A stretch of 64,000 nucleotides of DNA from Escherichia coli (GTDB lineage: Bacteria; Pseudomonadota; Gammaproteobacteria; Enterobacterales; Enterobacteriaceae). Location: the NCBI RefSeq assembly GCF_041248615.1, contig NZ_CP158426.1. The stretch is one strand, 5' to 3'. The notes beneath the pieces are model-generated. The model saw only the letters and a program-made list of their open reading frames with translations, did no database searches and was not told the origin of the DNA. The translations under genes and the position numbers were made by a program. Shown here piece by piece: positions 20,119 through 51,078 of this stretch (position 1 is its first letter; each line of letters opens with the position of its first letter).

Positions 20119-20673
20119 TTATCCTTCGATAAAAGCCATCCCTGTAAATGTCCGTCTCGGGTTGCCACGTTCAATCTGGTGATGGAACATTCGCCGCCGC
20201 GATTTCAGCACCGCGCTATTTTCCTGTTGCTGTTGTTCCAGCGTCCAGGCAATCAGCAATCGCGCCAGCCGCTTGTTAGCATGCCCAGAAACAAGTTTTT
20301 GCGCCCATGATGAGGCCGATACGGACTCGGACAAATCCACTGAATAGTGCCGCACCAACTTTCGCTTAATGCCCATGCGTTATCGCCATCCAGAGAAATC
20401 AGCGCCGAACGCAGCGTGTCAGAGTAGCGGCCCGTTTCTGTTTCCAGCACCGTTACCGCGACGTCTTGCCGGGTAAAAACGACCAACAGAGAATAACGCT
20501 GCGCCAATCGGGTAGCCGCGTCCGGGGTGTAAATCTGGCATCCCTACTACGCGCTGCATGTTGGGTAAATTTGCCGTGGTGTGTAATTGTTGAATCGCTA
20601 AACTCTCGATCCACAGGTCATCAGATGCGATGGTAAATACCGCATCGGATAAGGGACGAATATATTTGCCCAT
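20119..20673 (-). pseudogene. prfH: Decayed prfH (release-factor homologue) and upstream rtcB-like fragment (ykfJ-like)
   Basis: Three overlapping ORFs in different frames; the 5' piece has an RtcB N-terminal motif ([14 protein letters not shown]), the 3' pieces are release-factor-like. Confidence 0.55.
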
Positions 20674-29577: not shown

Positions 29578-30492
29578 TTACTGCAGCAGGCTGGAAACCA
29601 TGCTGGACATGCTGTTGGACTGTTTCAGCATGGTGATGCCGGTCTGCATCAGCACCTGCTGTTTGGTCATGTTGGACGCTTCCGTCGCGTAGTCGGTATC
29701 CATGATGTTACCGATAGCGACTTCGGTGTTGTCTTGCATACTGGTCAGGTTGTTGGCAGTGTCGTTCAGACGGTTGATAGAGGCACCCAGCTTGGACTGG
29801 ATCTGAGACACGTCATCCATCGCGGTAGAAATGCTGGTGATCATCTGGTTAGCCGAGCCAGACGCAGTCAGCTCAGTACCGCCAGAAACGCCTGCGGTGC
29901 CCGTGGTGTCAGCCTGATCCGCACTAAAGGAGTTGCTGATAGCAGAAAGATCAGTCACCAGGGTATTCAGCTGGCTTGAAATATTCACGGTCATGGTGTC
30001 GGAAGATTCCGCGCCCACCTGGAAAGTTACCGCGCTCTGGAACAGACCGTCAGTACCGGTGTTGCTGGTGCCGGAAACACCGAACAGGTTGGTGCCGCCG
30101 TAAGTGGTGTTTTGCAGCATGTCAGACATCTGCTGGCCCAGTTCGTCGTATTCGTCCTGCATCGCCTGCAGGTCGTCGTCGCTGTAGGTGCCGTTCGCTG
30201 CCTGAGTTGACAGGTCTTTCATACGACCCAGCACGTCAGACATTTCGTCGAACATGCTGTCGGCGGTTTGCAGCATCGCGGTGGCATCATTGATGTTGCT
30301 CAGCGCAACACCCATACCGCTGGACTGTGCTGTCAGACGGTTAGCAATTTGTTTGCCTGCGGCGTCATCGGCAGAAGAGTTAATCCGGTTACCTGTCGCC
30401 AGGCGTTCCATAGATGTAGACAGAGAAGAGCTGCTTTTGCTGATTGCATTAACGGCAGCCATTGAGGCGTTATTGGTGTTAATAGATAACAT
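29578..30492 (-). CDS. lafA: Lateral flagellin
   Basis: Start at MLSINTNNASM with RBS AAGGAG; conserved flagellin N and C termini; short (~305 aa). Confidence 0.9.
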   Translation of the reverse strand: MLSINTNNASMAAVNAISKSSSSLSTSMERLATGNRINSSADDAAGKQIANRLTAQSSGMGVALSNINDATAMLQTADSMFDEMSDVLGRMKDLSTQAANGTYSDDDLQAMQDEYDELGQQMSDMLQNTTYGGTNLFGVSGTSNTGTDGLFQSAVTFQVGAESSDTMTVNISSQLNTLVTDLSAISNSFSADQADTTGTAGVSGGTELTASGSANQMITSISTAMDDVSQIQSKLGASINRLNDTANNLTSMQDNTEVAIGNIMDTDYATEASNMTKQQVLMQTGITMLKQSNSMSSMVSSLLQ

Positions 30493-42727: not shown

Positions 42728-42914
42728 TTTGCTGTAATACCGCGTAGCATATGTATGACTAGCTCCCAATATTCTGACTTTCTGACAAATTTCATTGTGT
42801 ATTTTGGATAATTATTGAGCACTCAATCACTACTGTTTAAATATCCAGATGATAACTATTTCATCTGGGTCAAATGAGTGATATTGTATCACCAATAAGA
42901 CCTACGGGGGTGCT

Positions 42915-44339
42915 ATGTCTGAATTTGAATTGCTCGTGAAAGATCTTCTTTTAAAATCAGAAGAAGACGAGAAAAAGCGACAAGAAAAAGATCGAGAATT
43001 AATTTCAAAGGTTCTTGAAATCTATGATCAAAAATATGTTGCAGAACTCCTACGAAAAGTAGGAAAAAATGAATGGAGCAGAGAAACACTTAACCGTTGG
43101 ATAAATGGTAAGTGTAACCCTAAACAATTAACTTCTGCTGAGGAAACTTTACTTCGAAAGATGCTCCCAGAACCTCCCGAACATCATCCTAACTATACAT
43201 TTCGTTTTATTGATTTATTCGCAGGGATTGGTGGTATTCGTAAAGGCTTCGAAAATATTGGTGGGCAGTGTGTTTTTACTAGCGAATGGAATAAAGAAGC
43301 GGTAAGAACCTACAAAGCTAATTGGTTTAATGATGAACTAAATCATAAATTTAATCTTGATATACGAGAAGTCACTTTAAGTGATAGAGATGATGTTTCC
43401 GAAATGGAAGCCTATAATCATATAGACAAAAATATTCCAGATCATGATGTCCTTCTGGCCGGTTTTCCATGTCAACCCTTTAGTCTGGCTGGGGTAAGCA
43501 AGAAAAATTCTCTGGGGCGTGCACATGGTTTTGAATGTGAGGCACAAGGAACACTATTTTTTGATGTCGCTCGAATTATTAAATCAAAAAAACCAGCTAT
43601 TTTTGTGCTTGAGAATGTGAAGAACCTTAAAAGTCATGATAAAGGTAAGACTTTTAAAGTCATCATGGAAACACTCAATGAATTAGGGTATGAAGTCGCC
43701 GATGCTGGTGTGACTGGCTCAGATGATCCTAAAATTATAGATGGAAAACATTTTTTACCCCAACATCGTGAGCGTATAGTGTTGGTAGGATTTCGTAGGG
43801 ATCTAAATATTCACAAGGATTTCACGTTACGAAATATTAACCGCTTTTACCCTCAAAACAGGCCAACATTTGGTGAATTATTAGATCATGATGTTGACGA
43901 CAAATATATTTTGACTCCAAGGTTATGGGAATATCTTTACAATTATGCAAAAAAACATGCAGCAAAAGGAAATGGATTTGGTTTTGGTTTAGTGGATCCT
44001 AAAAATCCAGATAGTATCGCACGAACGCTGTCTGCTCGTTACCATAAAGATGGCTCTGAAATACTGATCGATCGTGGCTGGGATAAGGCTGTCGGTGAAA
44101 TCGATTTTAGTAATCCAGCGAATCAAGAGAATCGACCAAGAAGACTGACACCTCATGAATGTGCCAGGTTAATGGGTTTTGAAAAACCAGGGGGAAGACC
44201 TTTTAGAATACCTGTATCAGATACTCAAGCTTATAGACAATTTGGGAACTCAGTTGTTGTGCCAGTATTTGAAGCTGTAGCAAGATTACTAGAACCGTAC
44301 ATACAAAAGGCTGTCAGCATGCAAGTTATTAACGATTAA
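42915..44339 (+). CDS. DNA cytosine-5 methyltransferase, M.EcoRII/Dcm family (predicted CCWGG specificity)
   Basis: Motif I FAGIGG, motif [10 protein letters not shown], motif VI ENV; near full-length match to recalled M.EcoRII/Dcm; AT-rich. Confidence 0.9.
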
Positions 44340-44363
44340 TAATAATTAACTTTCACTATTGTG

Positions 44364-44386
44364 AGGCCTTTTTTATTAAAGGCCTC
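44364..44386. terminator. Bidirectional hairpin between convergent methylase and endonuclease genes
   Basis: gaggcc-ttttttattaaa-ggcctc. Confidence 0.55.
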
Positions 44387-44426
44387 TAAATATATAATCA
44401 TAAGTTATTATAAGTATACTTTTATA

Positions 44427-45632
44427 TTATACAAAATCTTCATACAGCGTTATTAACTGTGTGATAAAACCCTCTAACGTTAATAATCCCTCCCTGATTT
44501 CCTCCGGATATTTTTTATGAAGAGGGGAAGGTACAACCAAGGTGACACCTTCAGCTCTCATTTCGTTAAATTGAGCAACTGAGACACCCTCTTGTAAGGT
44601 AAACAAATATATTTTGTTGATTTTATTTGCTTCATTGAGTGCCTGACGCCACCGATCCTTACATGTTGTTTTTACAGCAAGCATACGGAGTTTTTCTCTT
44701 GGAAAGTGATCATCATGGTAAGCTGCCGCTGATGGAAAAAGAAAATCGGGTTTCTTTTTTCCTTCAGTAATACATTGAGTAGCAAAATGATGCAGTCCAT
44801 GCTCAATAAAAATTTGCTCAAGATGTAGCTCCAGTGATTTCCCGGCTCGAGATTTTCTTCGATTACTAACAGAGTTAGCCATAGCTATAAAATCATCTAC
44901 AGAACCAAACCCTTGACGGATGATGTCCAGTACGTGAATTTCTTCAACCATTAGAAAGAGATCATATTCAATACGGCGGCGTTCTAAAAGTTGGTCATCT
45001 GGACTGGTTACGCCTGTTGGGTAATAACCCGCAGCATATTGAATAATCTCTAAGCCAGAAGGAAAGCTATGTTTCCAGCTTTCCGGAATAACATATTCCT
45101 TTTGAGAGATTTTTGGCCTTGATGCGAGTACACCAAGTATTTCACTGGCAGGCCCAAACATTAAAGTTCCAGGAATGATCTCCCCAATAGCTGATTCCAG
45201 TACATCCTCTTCTTCTGGGCTAACACAAACCCATACATCAACACTTTTGCTGTCTCTCCCTGGCTCATGTTCAAACGCAAGCACAGACAAAGCACCTGTA
45301 TTTTCCGGATCCTGTAGGGGACTGCCAGCCCCCCACCGAGTGATGCGTTTTTCATTTCTTGTTTGCCCGAAATACTTATTATTGTAGTAAATAGCGCGAA
45401 CCTCACTGTCTACACATTCATGAGAGGAATAAGTTGCGCGCAATAAAACCGAAGGATTTTTTTCTGACGTATGATCTATAGATGGGAAAAGTTCAGCGAC
45501 GATACCAGAAGGGATATATACCCCCACTTGATGCCCTCCTGTTGCACCAGTGTCGTTTGCTGAAAGACGTTTAATATAGAGATAGTTGTTACCACCGACC
45601 TTATCAAGCAGCCAATCTTGTAATCCTGACAT
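44427..45632 (-). CDS. Type IIE restriction endonuclease, EcoRII family
   Basis: 401 aa; N-terminus YIKRLSANDTGATGGHQVG and catalytic domain match recalled R.EcoRII closely. Confidence 0.9.
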   Translation of the reverse strand: MSGLQDWLLDKVGGNNYLYIKRLSANDTGATGGHQVGVYIPSGIVAELFPSIDHTSEKNPSVLLRATYSSHECVDSEVRAIYYNNKYFGQTRNEKRITRWGAGSPLQDPENTGALSVLAFEHEPGRDSKSVDVWVCVSPEEEDVLESAIGEIIPGTLMFGPASEILGVLASRPKISQKEYVIPESWKHSFPSGLEIIQYAAGYYPTGVTSPDDQLLERRRIEYDLFLMVEEIHVLDIIRQGFGSVDDFIAMANSVSNRRKSRAGKSLELHLEQIFIEHGLHHFATQCITEGKKKPDFLFPSAAAYHDDHFPREKLRMLAVKTTCKDRWRQALNEANKINKIYLFTLQEGVSVAQFNEMRAEGVTLVVPSPLHKKYPEEIREGLLTLEGFITQLITLYEDFV

Positions 45633-45728
45633 AAGACATCCTTATTTTTGCATAGTATCCGATTCAGATTTTTCCACATATCCATCAGAACGACCAGAAC
45701 CAACATATCTGAACAAAAAGTAAATATG

Positions 45729-45736
45729 CGATAACG
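45729..45736 (+). promoter_or_regulatory. Possible sigma-28 -35 element (TAAAGTTT) upstream of lfgM; -10 match weak
   Basis: Perfect -35 consensus, but downstream -10 (aaccgctt) matches GCCGATAA at only 4 of 8 positions. Confidence 0.25.
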
Positions 45737-45804
45737 ATTAAAGTTTTGCCGCCTGTTAACCGCTTTACCGGAGTAACCCACCTAAATACCGAGACGAGGT
45801 TGCG

Positions 45805-46080
45805 ATGAAAATCACCCCGACTATGCCAGGCAATCGCCCGACAGTCACAACGGCAGGCTCCAGCCAGCCGCGCAAAGGCACGGCGACCACCACGACGCTA
45901 AGCGCCGACGACATTACCCAGGCGGGATTGCAGTCTGCCCAGCAAACACTGAACGACCAGCAAGAGAGCGATATCGACAGCGATAAAGTGGCGCAAATGC
46001 AGGCGATGCTGGCCTCCGGCAGCCTGCAAGTGGACACCGAACAGTTAGCCAGCGACATGCTGAGTTTTTTCCAGAACTAA
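45805..46080 (+). CDS. lfgM: Anti-sigma-28 factor FlgM homologue
   Basis: 91 aa, conserved C-terminal sigma-28-binding region. Confidence 0.75.
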   Translation: MKITPTMPGNRPTVTTAGSSQPRKGTATTTTLSADDITQAGLQSAQQTLNDQQESDIDSDKVAQMQAMLASGSLQVDTEQLASDMLSFFQN

Positions 46081-46092
46081 GAGGCCGATGAA

Positions 46093-46521
46093 GTGAGTAT
46101 CCGGTTACAACAGGTGAAGGCGTTGTTGCAGGGAATTCGTGACGATGACGCGCTGTATGATTCCCTGCGCGAACTTCTCCAGCGTCAGCGGATCTGCATG
46201 ATTCGCCGCGCCAGCGAAGAGCTGCTGGCGGTAAACGAGGAGATAACCCATCACTATGAGCAGTTGCATGGGCATAGCCATCAGCGGCACAGCCTGCTGA
46301 AAATGCTTAATGTCAGTGTAAATCGTGACGGTCTGGCGCAGGTTTTTGCCTGGCTTCCGGCGGTACAAAAAGCGGCAGCACAACAGTTGTGGCAACGCCT
46401 TGAGCAAAAAGCGGAACGCTGCAAAGCCTACAACGACAAAAACGGCGAGCTGTTGATTCGCCAGTATGAATTTATTCAGTCTTTTTTAGGTAGCGAAGCA
46501 GATTTTCTCTATCAGGAATAA
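46093..46521 (+). CDS. lfgN: FlgN-like export chaperone (GTG start)
   Basis: 142 aa helical protein immediately after flgM homologue. Confidence 0.6.
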   Translation: MSIRLQQVKALLQGIRDDDALYDSLRELLQRQRICMIRRASEELLAVNEEITHHYEQLHGHSHQRHSLLKMLNVSVNRDGLAQVFAWLPAVQKAAAQQLWQRLEQKAERCKAYNDKNGELLIRQYEFIQSFLGSEADFLYQE

Positions 46522-46597
46522 CGCGAATACCTTCCCCATAGCGGAAATGGATTTTCCGCCTGATTCACAATCCTTTGTTTTTGATTATAAAAATTCC

Positions 46598-46613
46598 CGG
46601 CACGCTTATTGCA
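46598..46613 (+). promoter_or_regulatory. Sigma-54 promoter upstream of the unknown 311-aa gene and transferase gene
   Basis: CGGCAC-GCTTA-TTGCA with correct GG-N10-GC spacing; lies inside the ORF-track N-terminus, implying the real start is at 46648. Confidence 0.5.
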
Positions 46614-46647
46614 CATTCCGCAAAGTAATAAAGACTGGAAGCCACCT

Positions 46648-47580
46648 ATGAGTTTTATTGAATGTTACGAACCGGAATACGTGCGCAATTTTATGACGCA
46701 ATATCCCGATTCGCCTTTGTACATCCGCAAGGTGTGGAAAAACGAGATTCGCCAGAGCCTGATGCTGACAGAGCCAGAAAGCTGCGAAGCGGTGCTCAAC
46801 GATGCCAGGGCCTTTGATTTACAGCTCACCTACCGCCCGGCGGAAGATAATGCCGCAGAACTCTCCGCGCGCGATGCGATAGTAAACCAGGTCATTTTGA
46901 GCACCCTTACGCTCCCCGATTTACCCCCGGAGCTTTCACTGTACGCCGTCGGGATTTTGCTCTCCCGCGCCAGCAAAATGCCGGGCAGAGACGGAGATAT
47001 TCTTGCCCGCTTGACGACGCTGCCACAGGCGCTGGCCGATCATGCACAAAAAGGCACGCTACAGGCACAGTTCGCCCAGCTGCCGCCCGTGCCACAGCTG
47101 GCGCGCCAGTTGATGACGCTGCTCGGCAGTTGTGCGTTTGACTGGTCGATTCTGCCGGAAAGCCCGCGCAAAACTTCGCTGCCGTTGCAGATGCCTTTGC
47201 TGGCGCTACATGACGCCAACAGCGAAGCCCTGTTACAACAGCAGCTTCAGGCACAGTGGCAAACCACCTGGCAACAGCATTTTGCCACCGCGCCCTGGAT
47301 GATGCGTAACTGGCTGATTTACCGCGTTTACCATGAGGTGATTGGGCAGGCAGACGGAGCAGATTATTGCCCGCTGGTGTGCGATTTTTATCTTATCCGC
47401 ACGTTAATCAGTTTATGGACGCTGGATGGTTCTCCGCTGCGACAGGAGGATATTTTCGCCCTCTTTGCCATGTTTGAACGCTGGCGAGCCAGTGAAAATG
47501 CTGTGCTGATTCGCCAACAAATTCAGGCTGAACGTTCCGCAGATCCCCTGCTTTATGCGTTTTCACTGCTGTCTTGCTAA
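46648..47580 (+). CDS. Hypothetical protein (311 aa), no recognisable domain; start at MSFIECYEPE
   Basis: ORF with RBS ggaag 7 nt upstream; sits between flgN homologue and the large transferase gene. Confidence 0.5.
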   Translation: MSFIECYEPEYVRNFMTQYPDSPLYIRKVWKNEIRQSLMLTEPESCEAVLNDARAFDLQLTYRPAEDNAAELSARDAIVNQVILSTLTLPDLPPELSLYAVGILLSRASKMPGRDGDILARLTTLPQALADHAQKGTLQAQFAQLPPVPQLARQLMTLLGSCAFDWSILPESPRKTSLPLQMPLLALHDANSEALLQQQLQAQWQTTWQQHFATAPWMMRNWLIYRVYHEVIGQADGADYCPLVCDFYLIRTLISLWTLDGSPLRQEDIFALFAMFERWRASENAVLIRQQIQAERSADPLLYAFSLLSC

Positions 47581-47626
47581 CGCTTTTTGGCCGGTTTTCC
47601 CGGCCTTATCGACTTCGTAAACTATC

Positions 47627-50092
47627 ATGCAAACCCTCATCAAAACACTCGCCACCCAGCGCGAAAAACCGTTCGTCAGCGTCGTCACGCCCACATGGAA
47701 CCGTAGCGCATTCCTGCCGTACCTGCTCTATATGTACCGCTATCAGGACTACCCGGCAGACCGCCGCGAACTGGTCATCCTCGACGACTCGCCGCAAAGC
47801 CATCAGCACATCATCGACCGTTTGACCGATGGCACGCCGGAAGCCTTTAACATCCGCTACATCCATCATCAGGAAAGACTGCCGCTGGGCAAAAAACGCA
47901 ACATGCTCAATGAACTGGCAGTGGGGGAATATATCCTCTGCATGGATGACGACGACTACTACCCGGCAGATAAAATCTCTTACACCATCGCCATAATGCA
48001 AAAACACCGGGCGCTCATCTCCGGTTCCGACCAGATCCCCATCTGGTACAGCCACATCAATCGCATCTTCCAAAGCCGCAGCTTTGGCTCACATAACATC
48101 CTCAACGGCACCTTTTGCTATCACCGTAACTACCTGAAAAAGCACCGTTACGACGATGATTGTAATTTAGGCGAAGAGAAAAGTTTCACCAACAATTTCA
48201 GCGTTAACCCGCTACAACTGCCCGGCGAGCGCACGATTTTGTGTATCTCGCATAGCCACAACACCTTTGATAAAGACTTTATTCTCGGGGCCAGCACGCC
48301 AGTAAACGCGGCGCTTACGGATATCGTCCGCGATCCGCTGCTCCGCAACGCCTATCTGAGTCTGCATAACGCCACTCATCACCAGGCGATCAACCATCAG
48401 GCGATCGATCAGGTCGTACTGATCAATCTGGATAAACGCCCGGATCGCTTACAACAGATCCGTGAAGAACTGGCATTGCTGCATATTCCACCTGAGAAGA
48501 TCACCCGCCTTGCCGCCAGTGAAGATCAAAACGGCCAACGGGGACGACGCCAGTCGCACTTGCAGGCGCTGCGCCTGGCGCAACAGCACGGCTGGCAAAA
48601 CTACCTGCTGCTGGAAGATGACGCGGTTATTCTCAAGCAGGAAAAACATATTCAGGTACTGAACACGCTGCTGGCGAGCCTGGCGAAAATTCCCTGGCAG
48701 GTGATGATCCTTGGCGGCGAAATTTCGCAGGGAACGATGCTAAAAAGTTTGCCGGGGCTGGTGCACGCGCGGGACTGCCGCAAGGTGTGCGCTTATCTGG
48801 TGAACAGCCGCTACTACCCGCAACTGGCGCAGCAGATGAGCAACGATGAGCACTCGCTGGAAGAGTGCTGGCAGCCGCTGCTACACGCCGACAAATGGCT
48901 GGCCTGTTACCCGAGCCTTTGTTACCAGCGACCGGGCTTTAGTGATATCGAGAAAAAAACGACTGACAACATTGCTCACTATTTCAATAAGTTACCCGTA
49001 GCCACCAAGCCATCTACATTACCCATCGCCGATACCATCGGCTTTTTTATGGAAACCTCATTCCACTACGCGCTCTACCGCCCAATCATCACCGCTCTGC
49101 AGGCGCAGGGGCAGAGCTGTACGCTGGTGATCAATGACCGCGTATTTAAACCATTTCTGGATGAAATGCTGGCGACGCTAAAAAGCATTGACGATCCGCA
49201 GCTCAAAGGTATGCGCTTATCTGAAATGCAGGCGCACGGTCAGCGGGTAAAATGCCTGGTCAGCCCCTATCACACGCCCGCGCTCAGTGGCCTGGCAGCG
49301 GTGAACGTCCGCGCCATGTACGGCTTAGCCAAAGAGGCGTGGAACCACGCCGACTGGAATCGTTTTTACCAACGCATTTTGTGTTATAGCCACTACAGCC
49401 AGCAGACACTGGCGCATTTCGGTAGCGCAAAAGTGGTCGGCAATCCACGTTTCGACGCCTGGCATAACGGCACGTTTGCCCGCACTCTGCCGGAAAATAT
49501 TCAACCCGATTCCCGTAAACCTACGGTGCTCTACGCCCCCACGTTTGGCGCATTAAGCTCCCTGCCCCACTGGGCAGAAAAATTGGGGCGCTTAAGCGGT
49601 GATGTGAACCTGATTTGCAAACTGCACCACGGCACCTGCTCGCGCCCGGAAGAAGCTGCATCGCTGGCACTGGCGCGCAGGCATTTAAAACAGCGCACCG
49701 ACTCCGCCCGCCACACGCTGGCGCTACTGGCAAAGGCCGATTACGTGCTGACCGATAACAGCGGCTTTATTTTCGATGCTATCCACGTTGATAAGCGGGT
49801 GATCCTGCTCGACTTTCCGGGCATGAGTGAATTACTCGAAGGCGAGAAAAGCTACTCCACGCCGGAGAGCGCCGATCAGCAAATCCGCGAAATATTGCCG
49901 GTGGCTCATGATATGGCAGAGTTGCGTTACTTGTTGTCAGAGGCGTTTGACTGGGGGGCGGTGCAGGCGCGGCTTACGAAGATTCGTCATCACTATTGCG
50001 ATGCGTTTATGGATGGCAAGGCGGGAGAACGGGCGGCGATGGTGATTGTGGAGGCGCTGGCGGACAAGGAATCGTCAGGGATATGTCGATAA
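47627..50092 (+). CDS. Three-domain transferase: GT2 glycosyltransferase + GT25-like domain + TagF-like CDP-glycerol glycerophosphotransferase domain
   Basis: N-terminal DxD-containing GT2 (CMDDDDYY), central GT25-like (VVLINLDKRPDRL), C-terminal TagF/TagB-type motif (LYAPTFG). Confidence 0.75.
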   Translation: MQTLIKTLATQREKPFVSVVTPTWNRSAFLPYLLYMYRYQDYPADRRELVILDDSPQSHQHIIDRLTDGTPEAFNIRYIHHQERLPLGKKRNMLNELAVGEYILCMDDDDYYPADKISYTIAIMQKHRALISGSDQIPIWYSHINRIFQSRSFGSHNILNGTFCYHRNYLKKHRYDDDCNLGEEKSFTNNFSVNPLQLPGERTILCISHSHNTFDKDFILGASTPVNAALTDIVRDPLLRNAYLSLHNATHHQAINHQAIDQVVLINLDKRPDRLQQIREELALLHIPPEKITRLAASEDQNGQRGRRQSHLQALRLAQQHGWQNYLLLEDDAVILKQEKHIQVLNTLLASLAKIPWQVMILGGEISQGTMLKSLPGLVHARDCRKVCAYLVNSRYYPQLAQQMSNDEHSLEECWQPLLHADKWLACYPSLCYQRPGFSDIEKKTTDNIAHYFNKLPVATKPSTLPIADTIGFFMETSFHYALYRPIITALQAQGQSCTLVINDRVFKPFLDEMLATLKSIDDPQLKGMRLSEMQAHGQRVKCLVSPYHTPALSGLAAVNVRAMYGLAKEAWNHADWNRFYQRILCYSHYSQQTLAHFGSAKVVGNPRFDAWHNGTFARTLPENIQPDSRKPTVLYAPTFGALSSLPHWAEKLGRLSGDVNLICKLHHGTCSRPEEAASLALARRHLKQRTDSARHTLALLAKADYVLTDNSGFIFDAIHVDKRVILLDFPGMSELLEGEKSYSTPESADQQIREILPVAHDMAELRYLLSEAFDWGAVQARLTKIRHHYCDAFMDGKAGERAAMVIVEALADKESSGICR

Positions 50093-50106
50093 AATTCGAT
50101 TTTTTA

Positions 50107-50144
50107 AACATGTCGTTGGAATACGTTTATGCCATCGACATGTT
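50107..50144. terminator. Hairpin between convergent transferase gene and tagD-like gene
   Basis: aacatgtcg ... cgacatgtt 9-bp stem. Confidence 0.45.
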
Positions 50145-50236
50145 TTAGGGATATGTCGAAAAAACGCGATTATTTAAACATATTTAACATAGCCAAACGG
50201 CAGACGGCATCATCTTCTCTCACTACGGGAATTAAA

Positions 50237-50641
50237 TCAGTAGGTGGCTGATTTACCCCTAATCACCTCAATAATCCCCGTCGTCGATACCGACGGCGTA
50301 CGGGGAAAATAGACCACCTCACAGACACACGAGAAATCGTCAAACTTCCCTGCCCAGTCATCACCCATCACTAAAATATCCGCACCGTACCCCCGCAAAT
50401 ACTCCGCTTTCTGCTCCAGCGATTCCTCCAGAAATACGCCATCCACGCACGCCAGCCCGGCGATAATCGCCATGCGGTCATCCTGATGGTAAACCGGTGC
50501 CCTGCCCTTTTTGGCGATGTTCAGGGCGTCGGACGATACGCCGACCAGCAGCCGCTCGCCCAGCTTGCGGGCGCGTTGTAAAAGGCGCAGATGACCGACG
50601 TGAAACACATCGAAGGTGCCGAAGGTGATGACCGTTTTCAT
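50237..50641 (-). CDS. Glycerol-3-phosphate cytidylyltransferase (TagD-like), makes CDP-glycerol
   Basis: FGTFDVFHVGHLRLL (HxGH) and RTPSVSTTGI motifs; start at MKTVITFG two nt after lfiJ stop. Confidence 0.8.
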   Translation of the reverse strand: MKTVITFGTFDVFHVGHLRLLQRARKLGERLLVGVSSDALNIAKKGRAPVYHQDDRMAIIAGLACVDGVFLEESLEQKAEYLRGYGADILVMGDDWAGKFDDFSCVCEVVYFPRTPSVSTTGIIEVIRGKSATY

Positions 50642-50643
50642 CG

Positions 50644-51078
50644 CTACTCCGCTAATTTGTGCCGCAACCAGCACTGAACGGCGATGTCATCCACCGCTTT
50701 CTGCGCTTTCGCCGTGGCGCTTTCCTGCTGCTCGCGGCGTTTGTCGTCCAGCGTCAGGGCCACCACTTTCTCTTCGCACGCCGCCGCCGTCAGGTTTTTC
50801 TGCATTCGCGTGGCTTTGATGTTAGCCAGCGTTTTTTCCTGTTCCTGCCAGGCGATTACCTTGCGCAAAGTACCTTTGTAGCCGCTGACATTTTTCAGCG
50901 ATTCCACCGATGCCGCCGCGCCCGCAGACGTTTTCTCCACCAGGTAGCCTAATGCTTTGATATTGTTGTCATAGCCCGCACAAATCTGTTTTTGCTTTGC
51001 CAGCTCGACGGTTTTGTCTTTGACCGATTTATCCCGCAGGCGCTGCAACTGCGCCAGGGTGTCGATGATTTGTCGCAT
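50644..51078 (-). CDS. lfiJ: FliJ-like export-apparatus stalk protein
   Basis: 144 aa coiled-coil protein immediately downstream of fliI homologue. Confidence 0.6.
   Translation of the reverse strand: MRQIIDTLAQLQRLRDKSVKDKTVELAKQKQICAGYDNNIKALGYLVEKTSAGAAASVESLKNVSGYKGTLRKVIAWQEQEKTLANIKATRMQKNLTAAACEEKVVALTLDDKRREQQESATAKAQKAVDDIAVQCWLRHKLAE

Follow-up and report, generated by a model that had tools for sequence, protein, structure and literature searches.

What three enzyme-like genes do in the middle of a flagellar gene cluster is the question raised by a 64,000-nucleotide (nt) stretch of the Escherichia coli NRZ14408 chromosome (contig NZ_CP158426.1), referred to below as the window. 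According to the RefSeq annotation, the window covers an intact-looking Flag-2 lateral-flagellar locus from lafU to lfhA, a locus that was reportedly first described by Ren and colleagues in 2005. The three genes form a module in variable region 1 (VR1) of Flag-2, between lfgMN and lfiJ. They are lafV (window positions 46648-47580, plus strand), encoding a 310-amino acid (aa) homologue of the C-terminal region of the flagellin lysine methylase FliB; a gene for an 821-aa three-domain transferase (47627-50092, plus strand), which is the GT2-1 protein of De Maayer et al. (2020); and a tagD-like gene for a 134-aa glycerol-3-phosphate cytidylyltransferase (50237-50641, minus strand). The reading that we favor, with a probability of roughly 60%, is that this module decorates the lateral flagellin LafA with a sugar carrying glycerol-phosphate, and that it does so in the cytoplasm before the flagellin is exported.

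Synthesis of cytidine diphosphate-glycerol (CDP-glycerol) by the tagD product is a well-supported prediction. The protein matches the Pfam family PF01467 (CTP_transf_like) with an E-value of 3.5e-20, and its best NCBIfam family is TIGR01518, which scores 115.1 bits and stands 39 bits over the next family. Against the Protein Data Bank (PDB) it finds Bacillus subtilis TagD (1coz) with an E-value of 5.7e-33 over residues 1-129 at 49% identity, and 2b7l with an E-value of 6.6e-28, while the next family, ethanolamine-phosphate cytidylyltransferase, follows at 1.8e-16. The Pfam, NCBIfam and 1coz searches bear out an earlier note on this DNA, which had called the gene product a TagD-like cytidylyltransferase. 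The protein is also 58% identical to the small cytidylyltransferase encoded in region 2 of the capsule locus of strain CFT073, which we take to be a K2 strain. In that locus the cytidylyltransferase gene lies two genes from that of a 1266-aa polymerase of the CDP-glycerol glycerophosphotransferase family, with a gene for a tetratricopeptide-repeat (TPR) protein between them. For the E. coli K2 capsule, a TagF-like polymerase builds a polymer of galactosyl-glycerol-phosphate (PMC5974469). In the alignment to TagD, the HxGH motif of the flag-2 protein reads F-H-V-G-H and the RTxGISTT motif reads R-T-P-S-V-S-T-T; TagD K46 is replaced by glycine, with K-K-x-R instead, a pattern that the K2-capsule enzyme shares.

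The enzyme that would use this donor is found in the 821-aa protein, whose AlphaFold 2 (AF2) model, built on 36 homologues (mean predicted local distance difference test score, pLDDT, 85.6), consists of three domains. Domain 1 (aa ~12-250; 47660-48376, plus strand) has the GT-A fold of glycosyltransferase family 2 (GT2). PF00535 is matched by the protein itself at aa 18-132 (E 7.8e-16), sequence searches of the PDB return GT2 enzymes, and the motifs LDDS (D53, D54) and DDDD (D107-D110) are nearly invariant in the alignment. Domain 2 (aa ~260-455; 48404-48991, plus strand) is a second GT-A fold, of GT25-like type, and contains the acidic motif E330-D331-D332, in which D331 is nearly invariant. 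Together, domains 1 and 2 have human COLGALT1/GLT25D1 as their top PDB match in Foldseek (E 1e-18). COLGALT1, which acts on hydroxylysine, belongs to family GT25 and has two GT-A domains in tandem; it is only 12-13% identical to the flag-2 protein, and the resemblance may reflect its being the sole solved GT25 enzyme. Domain 3 (aa ~470-815; 49034-50071, plus strand) has a GT-B fold and is TagF-like by profile matches and motifs. The GT2 match, the AF2 model and the TagF-like profiles agree with the three domains that had been read from the sequence at first sight. The label GT25-like stands by fold and by the detection of PF01755 in 2 of 36 orthologues (best E 5.4e-6); it fails by Pfam on the protein itself, which gives no PF01755 match even at E<=10. 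The family is weakly detected in a Plesiomonas homologue as well. The 821-aa protein joins a GT2+GT25-like protein and a TagB/TagF-like protein in one chain. In other genera the two parts occur unfused, as separate adjacent genes of ~470 aa and ~355 aa, which implies that both belong to one pathway. Two further proteins (P0078 and P0079) have the same GT2+GT25 N-terminus, with PF05159 (a KpsC/KpsS-like transferase of 3-deoxy-D-manno-octulosonic acid) in place of the TagF-like domain, and these fusions suggest modular swapping of the third activity.

The assignment of domain 3 is based on structure, profiles and motifs. Its fold is closest to that of TagF/TarL, with TagF, TarL and Bcs3 as nearest structures. 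A profile built from domain 3 only matches Cps3D (E 4.9e-5) and TarL (E 7.7e-4), and hhalign pairs the domain with the E. coli K2 capsule polymerase at an E-value of 2e-5. Restricting the profile to the domain was required for these matches; the whole-protein profile retrieved GT2 enzymes only from the PDB, and a phmmer search of the PDB with the C-terminal domain alone found nothing meaningful. PF04464 (Glyphos_transf) is recognized at E<=1e-3 in 13 of the 36 orthologues (best E 1.7e-8) and is carried by the stand-alone orthologues. Moreover, 24 family members show no variation in the donor-side motifs GNPRFD, LYAPT(FG), KLH667H668 and TDNSGFIFD, which correspond to the family pattern GxPRxD, YAPTxR, H[PH] and TDYSSxxFD. 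H667 aligns both with the HH of the K2 polymerase and with TarL H433, the histidine from which the leaving group receives its proton (PMC10901376).

The association of these activities with each other and with flagellar genes was followed across species. Scanning a single genome for each species yielded 76 loci, onto which nine marker proteins (eleven tblastn queries) were mapped; VR1 was considered complete when both lfiJ and lfgN were found, which was the case in 48 species-level loci. TagD and the TagF-like part are both present in 27 of the 48 (including L018, in which tagD lies just past lfiJ) and both absent in 18, and TagD is never found without the TagF-like part (0/48); the phylogeny-uncorrected Fisher p-value of this co-occurrence is 2e-10. 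The idea that the cluster encodes both donor synthesis and transfer, already put forward from the sequence of this one locus, holds in this wider set. In ~21 loci the transferase and the TagF-like part form one fused protein, and in ~10 the latter has a separate gene of ~355 aa. LafV adjoins the GT2+GT25 gene in 45 of the 48 loci. Such a distribution speaks for a conserved core, formed by the transferase and LafV, with an optional polyol-phosphate add-on, and for a module that is tied to flagellin. An analogous module exists outside the Enterobacterales, on chromosome 2 of Burkholderia oklahomensis (L081, 8001-14617). There, genes for a GT2 protein (490 aa), a FliB_C protein (309 aa, CxCxxC type), an S-adenosylmethionine-dependent methyltransferase, a HAD hydrolase, an IspD-like cytidylyltransferase and a Glyphos_transf protein (377 aa) are directly followed by the flagellin gene (300 aa) and motAB. 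Within E. coli, the 5.1-kb region is present at >=90% identity in 1280 of 5426 complete genomes, and more than 1200 genomes carry the three module genes at full length. A different arrangement is seen in Plesiomonas sp. (L083, 8001-15618), where an 841-aa homologue (38% identity, GT2 plus weak GT25) is encoded near motAB and next to genes for an NTP_transferase, a glutamine amidotransferase and a 1011-aa phosphoenolpyruvate-utilising enzyme. TagD is absent from this locus, which indicates a different activated donor.

The third protein, LafV, had been described in the earlier note as 311 aa with no recognisable domain, a description that has to be abandoned. LafV matches the NCBIfam FliB model NF038110 with an E-value of 6.5e-12, at profile positions 105-364 only, and PF27117 (FliB_C) is found on every LafV homologue; a scan with an older Pfam release gave no match. 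A profile search with LafV of 1.8 billion representatives retrieved two length classes, one of ~310 aa that matches LafV end to end and one of ~400 aa that scores 158-293 bits on the FliB model. LafV retains the first ~15 FliB residues (Y-E-P-E-Y-V-R-N-F, which includes the shared very N-terminal segment Y-x-P-E-[FY]-V), after which ~87 aligned positions are deleted. In the alignment with full-length FliBs this deletion takes out the CX4CX3CC motif together with other conserved cysteines, and the 2-3 cysteines of the N-terminal region of LafV include none in a CX4CX3CC arrangement. Two short LafV types exist across the loci, that of Escherichia/Citrobacter, which has no cysteine motif, and that of Enterobacter/Erwinia/Pantoea, which has CxCxxC only. 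In FliB, CX4CX3CC binds a [4Fe-4S] cluster indispensable for methyl transfer, and the enzyme acts on surface lysines of the flagellin domains D2/D3 (Wang et al., PMC8598068). The AF2 model of LafV (pLDDT 93) has no PDB match in Foldseek at E<=0.001. In NRZ14408 the protein is annotated as hypothetical in RefSeq, and many of its homologues have been named lysine-N-methylase by the Prokaryotic Genome Annotation Pipeline (PGAP). Because the CX4CX3CC motif that FliB needs is lost, LafV is, judging from its sequence, probably not a methylase, and the name is probably wrong.

We consider it unlikely that LafV is nevertheless an active lysine N-methylase working by other chemistry, in a module that both methylates and glycosylates LafA, as the current annotation and De Maayer et al. 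would have it. The C-terminal three quarters of FliB are clearly homologous to LafV, the length and sequence of LafV are conserved across genera, which implies selection, and the PGAP names agree with this view. Against it stand the complete deletion of the motif in Escherichia/Citrobacter and its reduction to CxCxxC in Enterobacter/Erwinia, a score below the curated NF038110 cutoff, and the composition of the presumed substrate. LafA (304 aa; lafA at 29578-30492, minus strand) contains six lysines. Five of these belong to the conserved terminal segments, and the sixth, K234, sits at the border of the exposed centre (aa 141-235), with none inside it, while 34% of the residues of this centre are Ser or Thr. 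Like Salmonella FliB, LafV is the product of a flagellar locus, and it is homologous to residues ~105-370 of that enzyme; unlike it, LafV lacks the ~87 positions with the iron-sulfur motif and has a presumed substrate almost without exposed lysines. A YkgJ-family cysteine-cluster protein (CxxCxxCC) is encoded by ykgJ at 1175-1504, 45 kb from lafV; the FliB paper compares the N-terminal motif of FliB with the CxxCxxCC family of YkgJ (PMC8598068), and the presence of ykgJ in the window is probably a coincidence.

From the homologies, domain architecture, synteny and co-occurrence described so far, we infer which substrate and sugars are used, in what order the steps run and what LafV does, as follows. 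Modification would most likely take place in the cytoplasm, on LafA that has not yet been exported. TagD would convert cytidine triphosphate and sn-glycerol-3-phosphate to CDP-glycerol, as its strong homology to the TagD of known structure and to the enzyme of the K2 capsule locus indicates. The two GT-A domains, in which the acidic nucleotide-sugar motifs are kept, would add one or two sugars, presumably to Ser/Thr residues of LafA in its exposed centre, which is rich in them. The TagF-like domain would then move glycerol-phosphate from CDP-glycerol onto the LafA glycan with release of cytidine monophosphate, giving a phosphodiester-linked cap or a short teichoic-acid-like unit; this step is suggested by the fold, the donor-side motifs and the strict co-occurrence with TagD. 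LafV, as a descendant of a flagellin lysine methylase, may hold or present flagellin to the glycosyltransferase, a speculative role proposed because the two genes adjoin in almost every locus. Expression appears to be linked to the flagellar regulon by position, since tagD ends the lfiEFGHIJ cluster and lafV and the transferase gene come after lfgMN. A more specific version, in which LafV is a catalytically dead FliB descendant serving as flagellin-recognition partner, the trifunctional enzyme and TagD add sugar-glycerol-phosphate by way of a Tyr/His base, and the whole system is common to many Enterobacterales and to Burkholderia Fla2-type flagella, is possible, if doubtful.

Several observations weigh against the glycerol-phosphate reading. 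The tagD product remains under the curated equivalog cutoff of TIGR01518 (115.1 against 165.4 bits), as does LafV under that of NF038110 (45.7 bits against 85), and PF04464 is marginal on the 821-aa protein itself (aa 603-726, E 0.012). The TagF-like family is defined by two catalytic histidines ~130-140 residues apart (PMC10901376, PMC5974469), the first of which lies in a W-H-G motif at a strand end (H604 in the K2 polymerase). In domain 3 the acceptor-side, N-terminal half cannot be aligned with confidence; profile-profile comparison of this half with the K2 polymerase in local, low-mact and global modes gave zero confidence throughout, and MAFFT was equally unreliable. By predicted strand order only, the position of the WHG histidine (TagF H444, TarL H300) is occupied by Y565, within an invariant R-x-x-Y565-G-L-A-K-x-x-W-x-H574 that takes the place of WHG and in which H574 follows Y565 by nine residues. 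The Burkholderia flagellar homologue likewise has YG at the WHG position. On these models the canonical WHG catalytic histidine appears to be absent, and H574 or H480 might substitute for it. The activity or mechanism of the domain may differ from the canonical one: either a different residue serves as the base, or the chemistry differs. The genomic counts are also to be read with care, as the loci were found via transferase similarity and are related phylogenetically, so that they are not independent samples, and in three of the 48 the TagF-like part occurs without TagD. These three, Leminorella grimontii (L022), a Citrobacter freundii strain (L024) and an Enterobacteriaceae metagenome-assembled genome (L021), carry a fused TagF-like domain and no tagD in VR1, with identities of 40-41% in the first two. 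Lastly, the link between the module and LafA is drawn from genomic context, a literature search found no report of glycerol-phosphate on any flagellin in the library covered, and Flag-2 expression in E. coli is uncertain.

The 821-aa enzyme could be a true polymerase, making repeats of (sugar-glycerol-phosphate)n on flagellin or on some other protein of the flagellum instead of a single capped glycan, which we hold to be distinctly unlikely. The module does follow the domain logic of TagF-like capsule polymerases, as a glycosyltransferase-TagF-like fusion with a cognate cytidylyltransferase, and the nearest folds, TagF, TarL and Bcs3, are all polymerases. However, TagB-type primases, which make single additions, have the same fold, and the 821-aa protein has neither the TPR or extra N-terminal domain usual in polymerases (PMC10901376) nor, in the AF2 model, membrane-binding helices. 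A long polyanionic chain would moreover be hard to square with unfolded passage through the narrow flagellar export channel. The group 2 capsule polymerases (Cps1B, Cps3D, Cps7D and K2) share with the flag-2 module the fusion, the cognate cytidylyltransferase, cytoplasmic CDP-glycerol chemistry, the donor-side motifs and the second histidine (PMC5974469), whereas the flag-2 module has no TPR, kps export genes or lipid anchor pathway, its WHG motif is unrecognisable, and it lies in a flagellar locus, with an acceptor that is presumably a protein-linked glycan.

That the module might instead be horizontally acquired cargo, lodged in a flag-2 hotspot and acting on a non-flagellar acceptor such as the lipopolysaccharide core, a surface glycan or another protein, is very unlikely in our judgment. 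VR1 is a known hotspot that holds much unrelated cargo (PMC6993521), a restriction-modification pair of EcoRII type lies 1 kb off, the module has a slightly lower guanine-plus-cytosine (GC) content than the flanking flagellar genes, and loci L063-L078, in which flagellar markers were undetected, encode stand-alone GT25-like relatives of 30-37% identity. A cargo origin is nevertheless at odds with the retention of the glycosyltransferase and the FliB-derived protein at the same flagellar position in 45 of 48 species, with the recurrence of the module beside a flagellin gene in a beta-proteobacterium and with the distance of just 2 nt between tagD and lfiJ. Also against it, a flippase, an ABC exporter and a priming enzyme for undecaprenyl-phosphate are all lacking from the region. 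No likelier than this is a decaying or inactive module in a cryptic Flag-2 system, with the TagF-like domain and LafV as relics. In its favor, Flag-2 function in E. coli is undemonstrated, the loci vary by deletion and insertion, and catalytic motifs (the WHG histidine and the Fe-S motif) are missing. Against it, all Flag-2 genes of NRZ14408 are intact with no pseudogene flags in the RefSeq annotation, the three genes are kept at full length in the more than 1200 E. coli genomes noted above, and Y565, H574 and the core of LafV do not vary between genera whose proteins are 40-55% identical overall, which argues for purifying selection on a variant mechanism and not for decay.

The immediate neighborhood agrees with the placement of the three genes between flgMN and fliJ homologues that had been reported for this DNA, in reading frames, order and context. 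Upstream of lafV and on the same strand lie lfgM (45805-46080, plus strand), encoding an anti-sigma factor, and lfgN (46093-46521, plus strand), encoding a chaperone; lafV and the transferase gene continue downstream in the same orientation, with spacers of 126 nt between lfgN and lafV and 46 nt between lafV and the transferase gene. On the opposite strand, lfiJ (50644-51078, minus strand) is the final flagellar gene of the lfiEFGHIJ cluster, and tagD follows directly, its start codon 2 nt past the lfiJ stop codon. Two boundaries of the earlier note need correction. Its start of the module at 46598 falls in the lfgN/lafV spacer, RefSeq placing the start of lafV at the ATG at 46648, hence 310 aa and not 311, and its end at 50674 belongs to a GTG-extended reading frame that overlaps lfiJ, while TagD similarity and RefSeq both start the gene at the ATG at 50641. 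Genes for kps functions, ABC transporters, flippases, TPR proteins or lipid-carrier priming are absent from the RefSeq annotation of the E. coli region.

Short GC-rich hairpins with no clear T-run are present in the lfgN-lafV spacer (46522-46647; GCGGAAATGGATTTTCCGC) and in the lafV-transferase spacer (47581-47626; GGCCGGTTTTCCCGGCC), and might modulate read-through. The spacer in which the transferase gene and tagD converge contains two copies of a 35-nt direct repeat (50077-50111 and 50147-50181), which are 89% identical and 70 nt apart, with an 18-nt inverted repeat (50106-50123 / 50128-50145) between them. The first copy overlaps the final transferase codons, the repeat occurs nowhere else in the window, and the length of this spacer region differs in other E. 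coli strains. The EcoRII-type pair, with a GC content of 36-38%, consists of a cytosine methyltransferase (42915-44339, plus strand) and an endonuclease (44427-45632, minus strand) within an insertion at 42734-45734 that begins right after the lfgA stop codon and ends ~70 nt 5' of lfgM; such cargo has been reported in 21 Escherichia strains (De Maayer et al., PMC6993521). A sigma-28-like -35 box, TAAAGTTT, is found downstream of the insertion at ~45737-45744. The possibility that the insertion separates lfgMN, lafV and the glycosyltransferase gene from their promoter was rejected, as ~70 nt of native upstream sequence, including the TAAAGTTT box, persist. Further away, between pepD and yafP (20119-20673), annotated remnants comprise a prfH that is frameshifted and truncated and a fragment of the rtcB family.

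The module in NRZ14408 is the flagellin-modification island of De Maayer et al. (2020), who analysed 592 flag-2 loci and defined VR1 (PMC6993521), as it shares with it the locus, the position between lfiJ and lfgN and the families LafV, GT2-1 and TagD. The gene set and the proposed role are already published as a prediction. The VR1 catalogue lists LafV1-10, GT2-1 (828 aa, 222 strains, pfam00535 only), GT2-3 (474 aa), TagB1-8 and TagD (133 aa, 235 strains), with TagB-like proteins counted separately (65 strains), and teichoic-acid-type polymers were proposed as a probable part of the flag-2 flagellin glycan (PMC6993521). In that genome comparison, made without experiments, the TagF-like domain of GT2-1 is not noted, and LafV is taken as a methylase orthologue with no remark on its missing Fe-S motif (PMC6993521). 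A 2024 paper on E. albertii repeats the annotation as glycosyltransferase and lysine-N-methylase. The view that teichoic-acid-type chemistry is unexpected in this setting, expressed when the locus was first read, has consequently been overtaken by the 2020 proposal, and it is weakened further by the well-known TagF-like/TagD pairs of Gram-negative capsules (PMC5974469). For flagellin glycans that combine a sugar with a phosphate-linked small group there are precedents in GlcNAc (N-acetylglucosamine)-phospho-N-methylthreonine on type A flagellin of Clostridioides difficile and deoxyhexose-phosphate-X on b-type flagellin of Pseudomonas aeruginosa, made by a GT2 protein and a phosphotransferase whose genes lie beside the flagellin genes; the phosphotransferases belong to other families and the substituents are different. 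New in the present analysis are the partner of TagD at the domain level, the finding that LafV has lost the Fe-S motif, a base in the TagF-like domain that may be non-canonical, and the parallel in Burkholderia.

In all, the discovery is a modest one, because the gene set and its role were already in the literature. It assigns the C-terminal domain of the 821-aa protein as the partner enzyme of TagD, it offers D107/D109, D331/D332, Y565, H574 and H667 as candidate residues for mutagenesis, and it is a warning that the widespread label lysine-N-methylase on LafV is probably wrong. If the glycerol-phosphate reading is true, the lateral flagella of E. coli, Citrobacter, Enterobacter and their relatives would carry a negatively charged glycerol-phosphate glycan, a chemistry that until now is known in the walls of Gram-positive bacteria and in some capsules, and not in flagellin. 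Such a decoration could affect the surface charge of the filament, swarming, recognition by phages and antibodies, and innate immune sensing.

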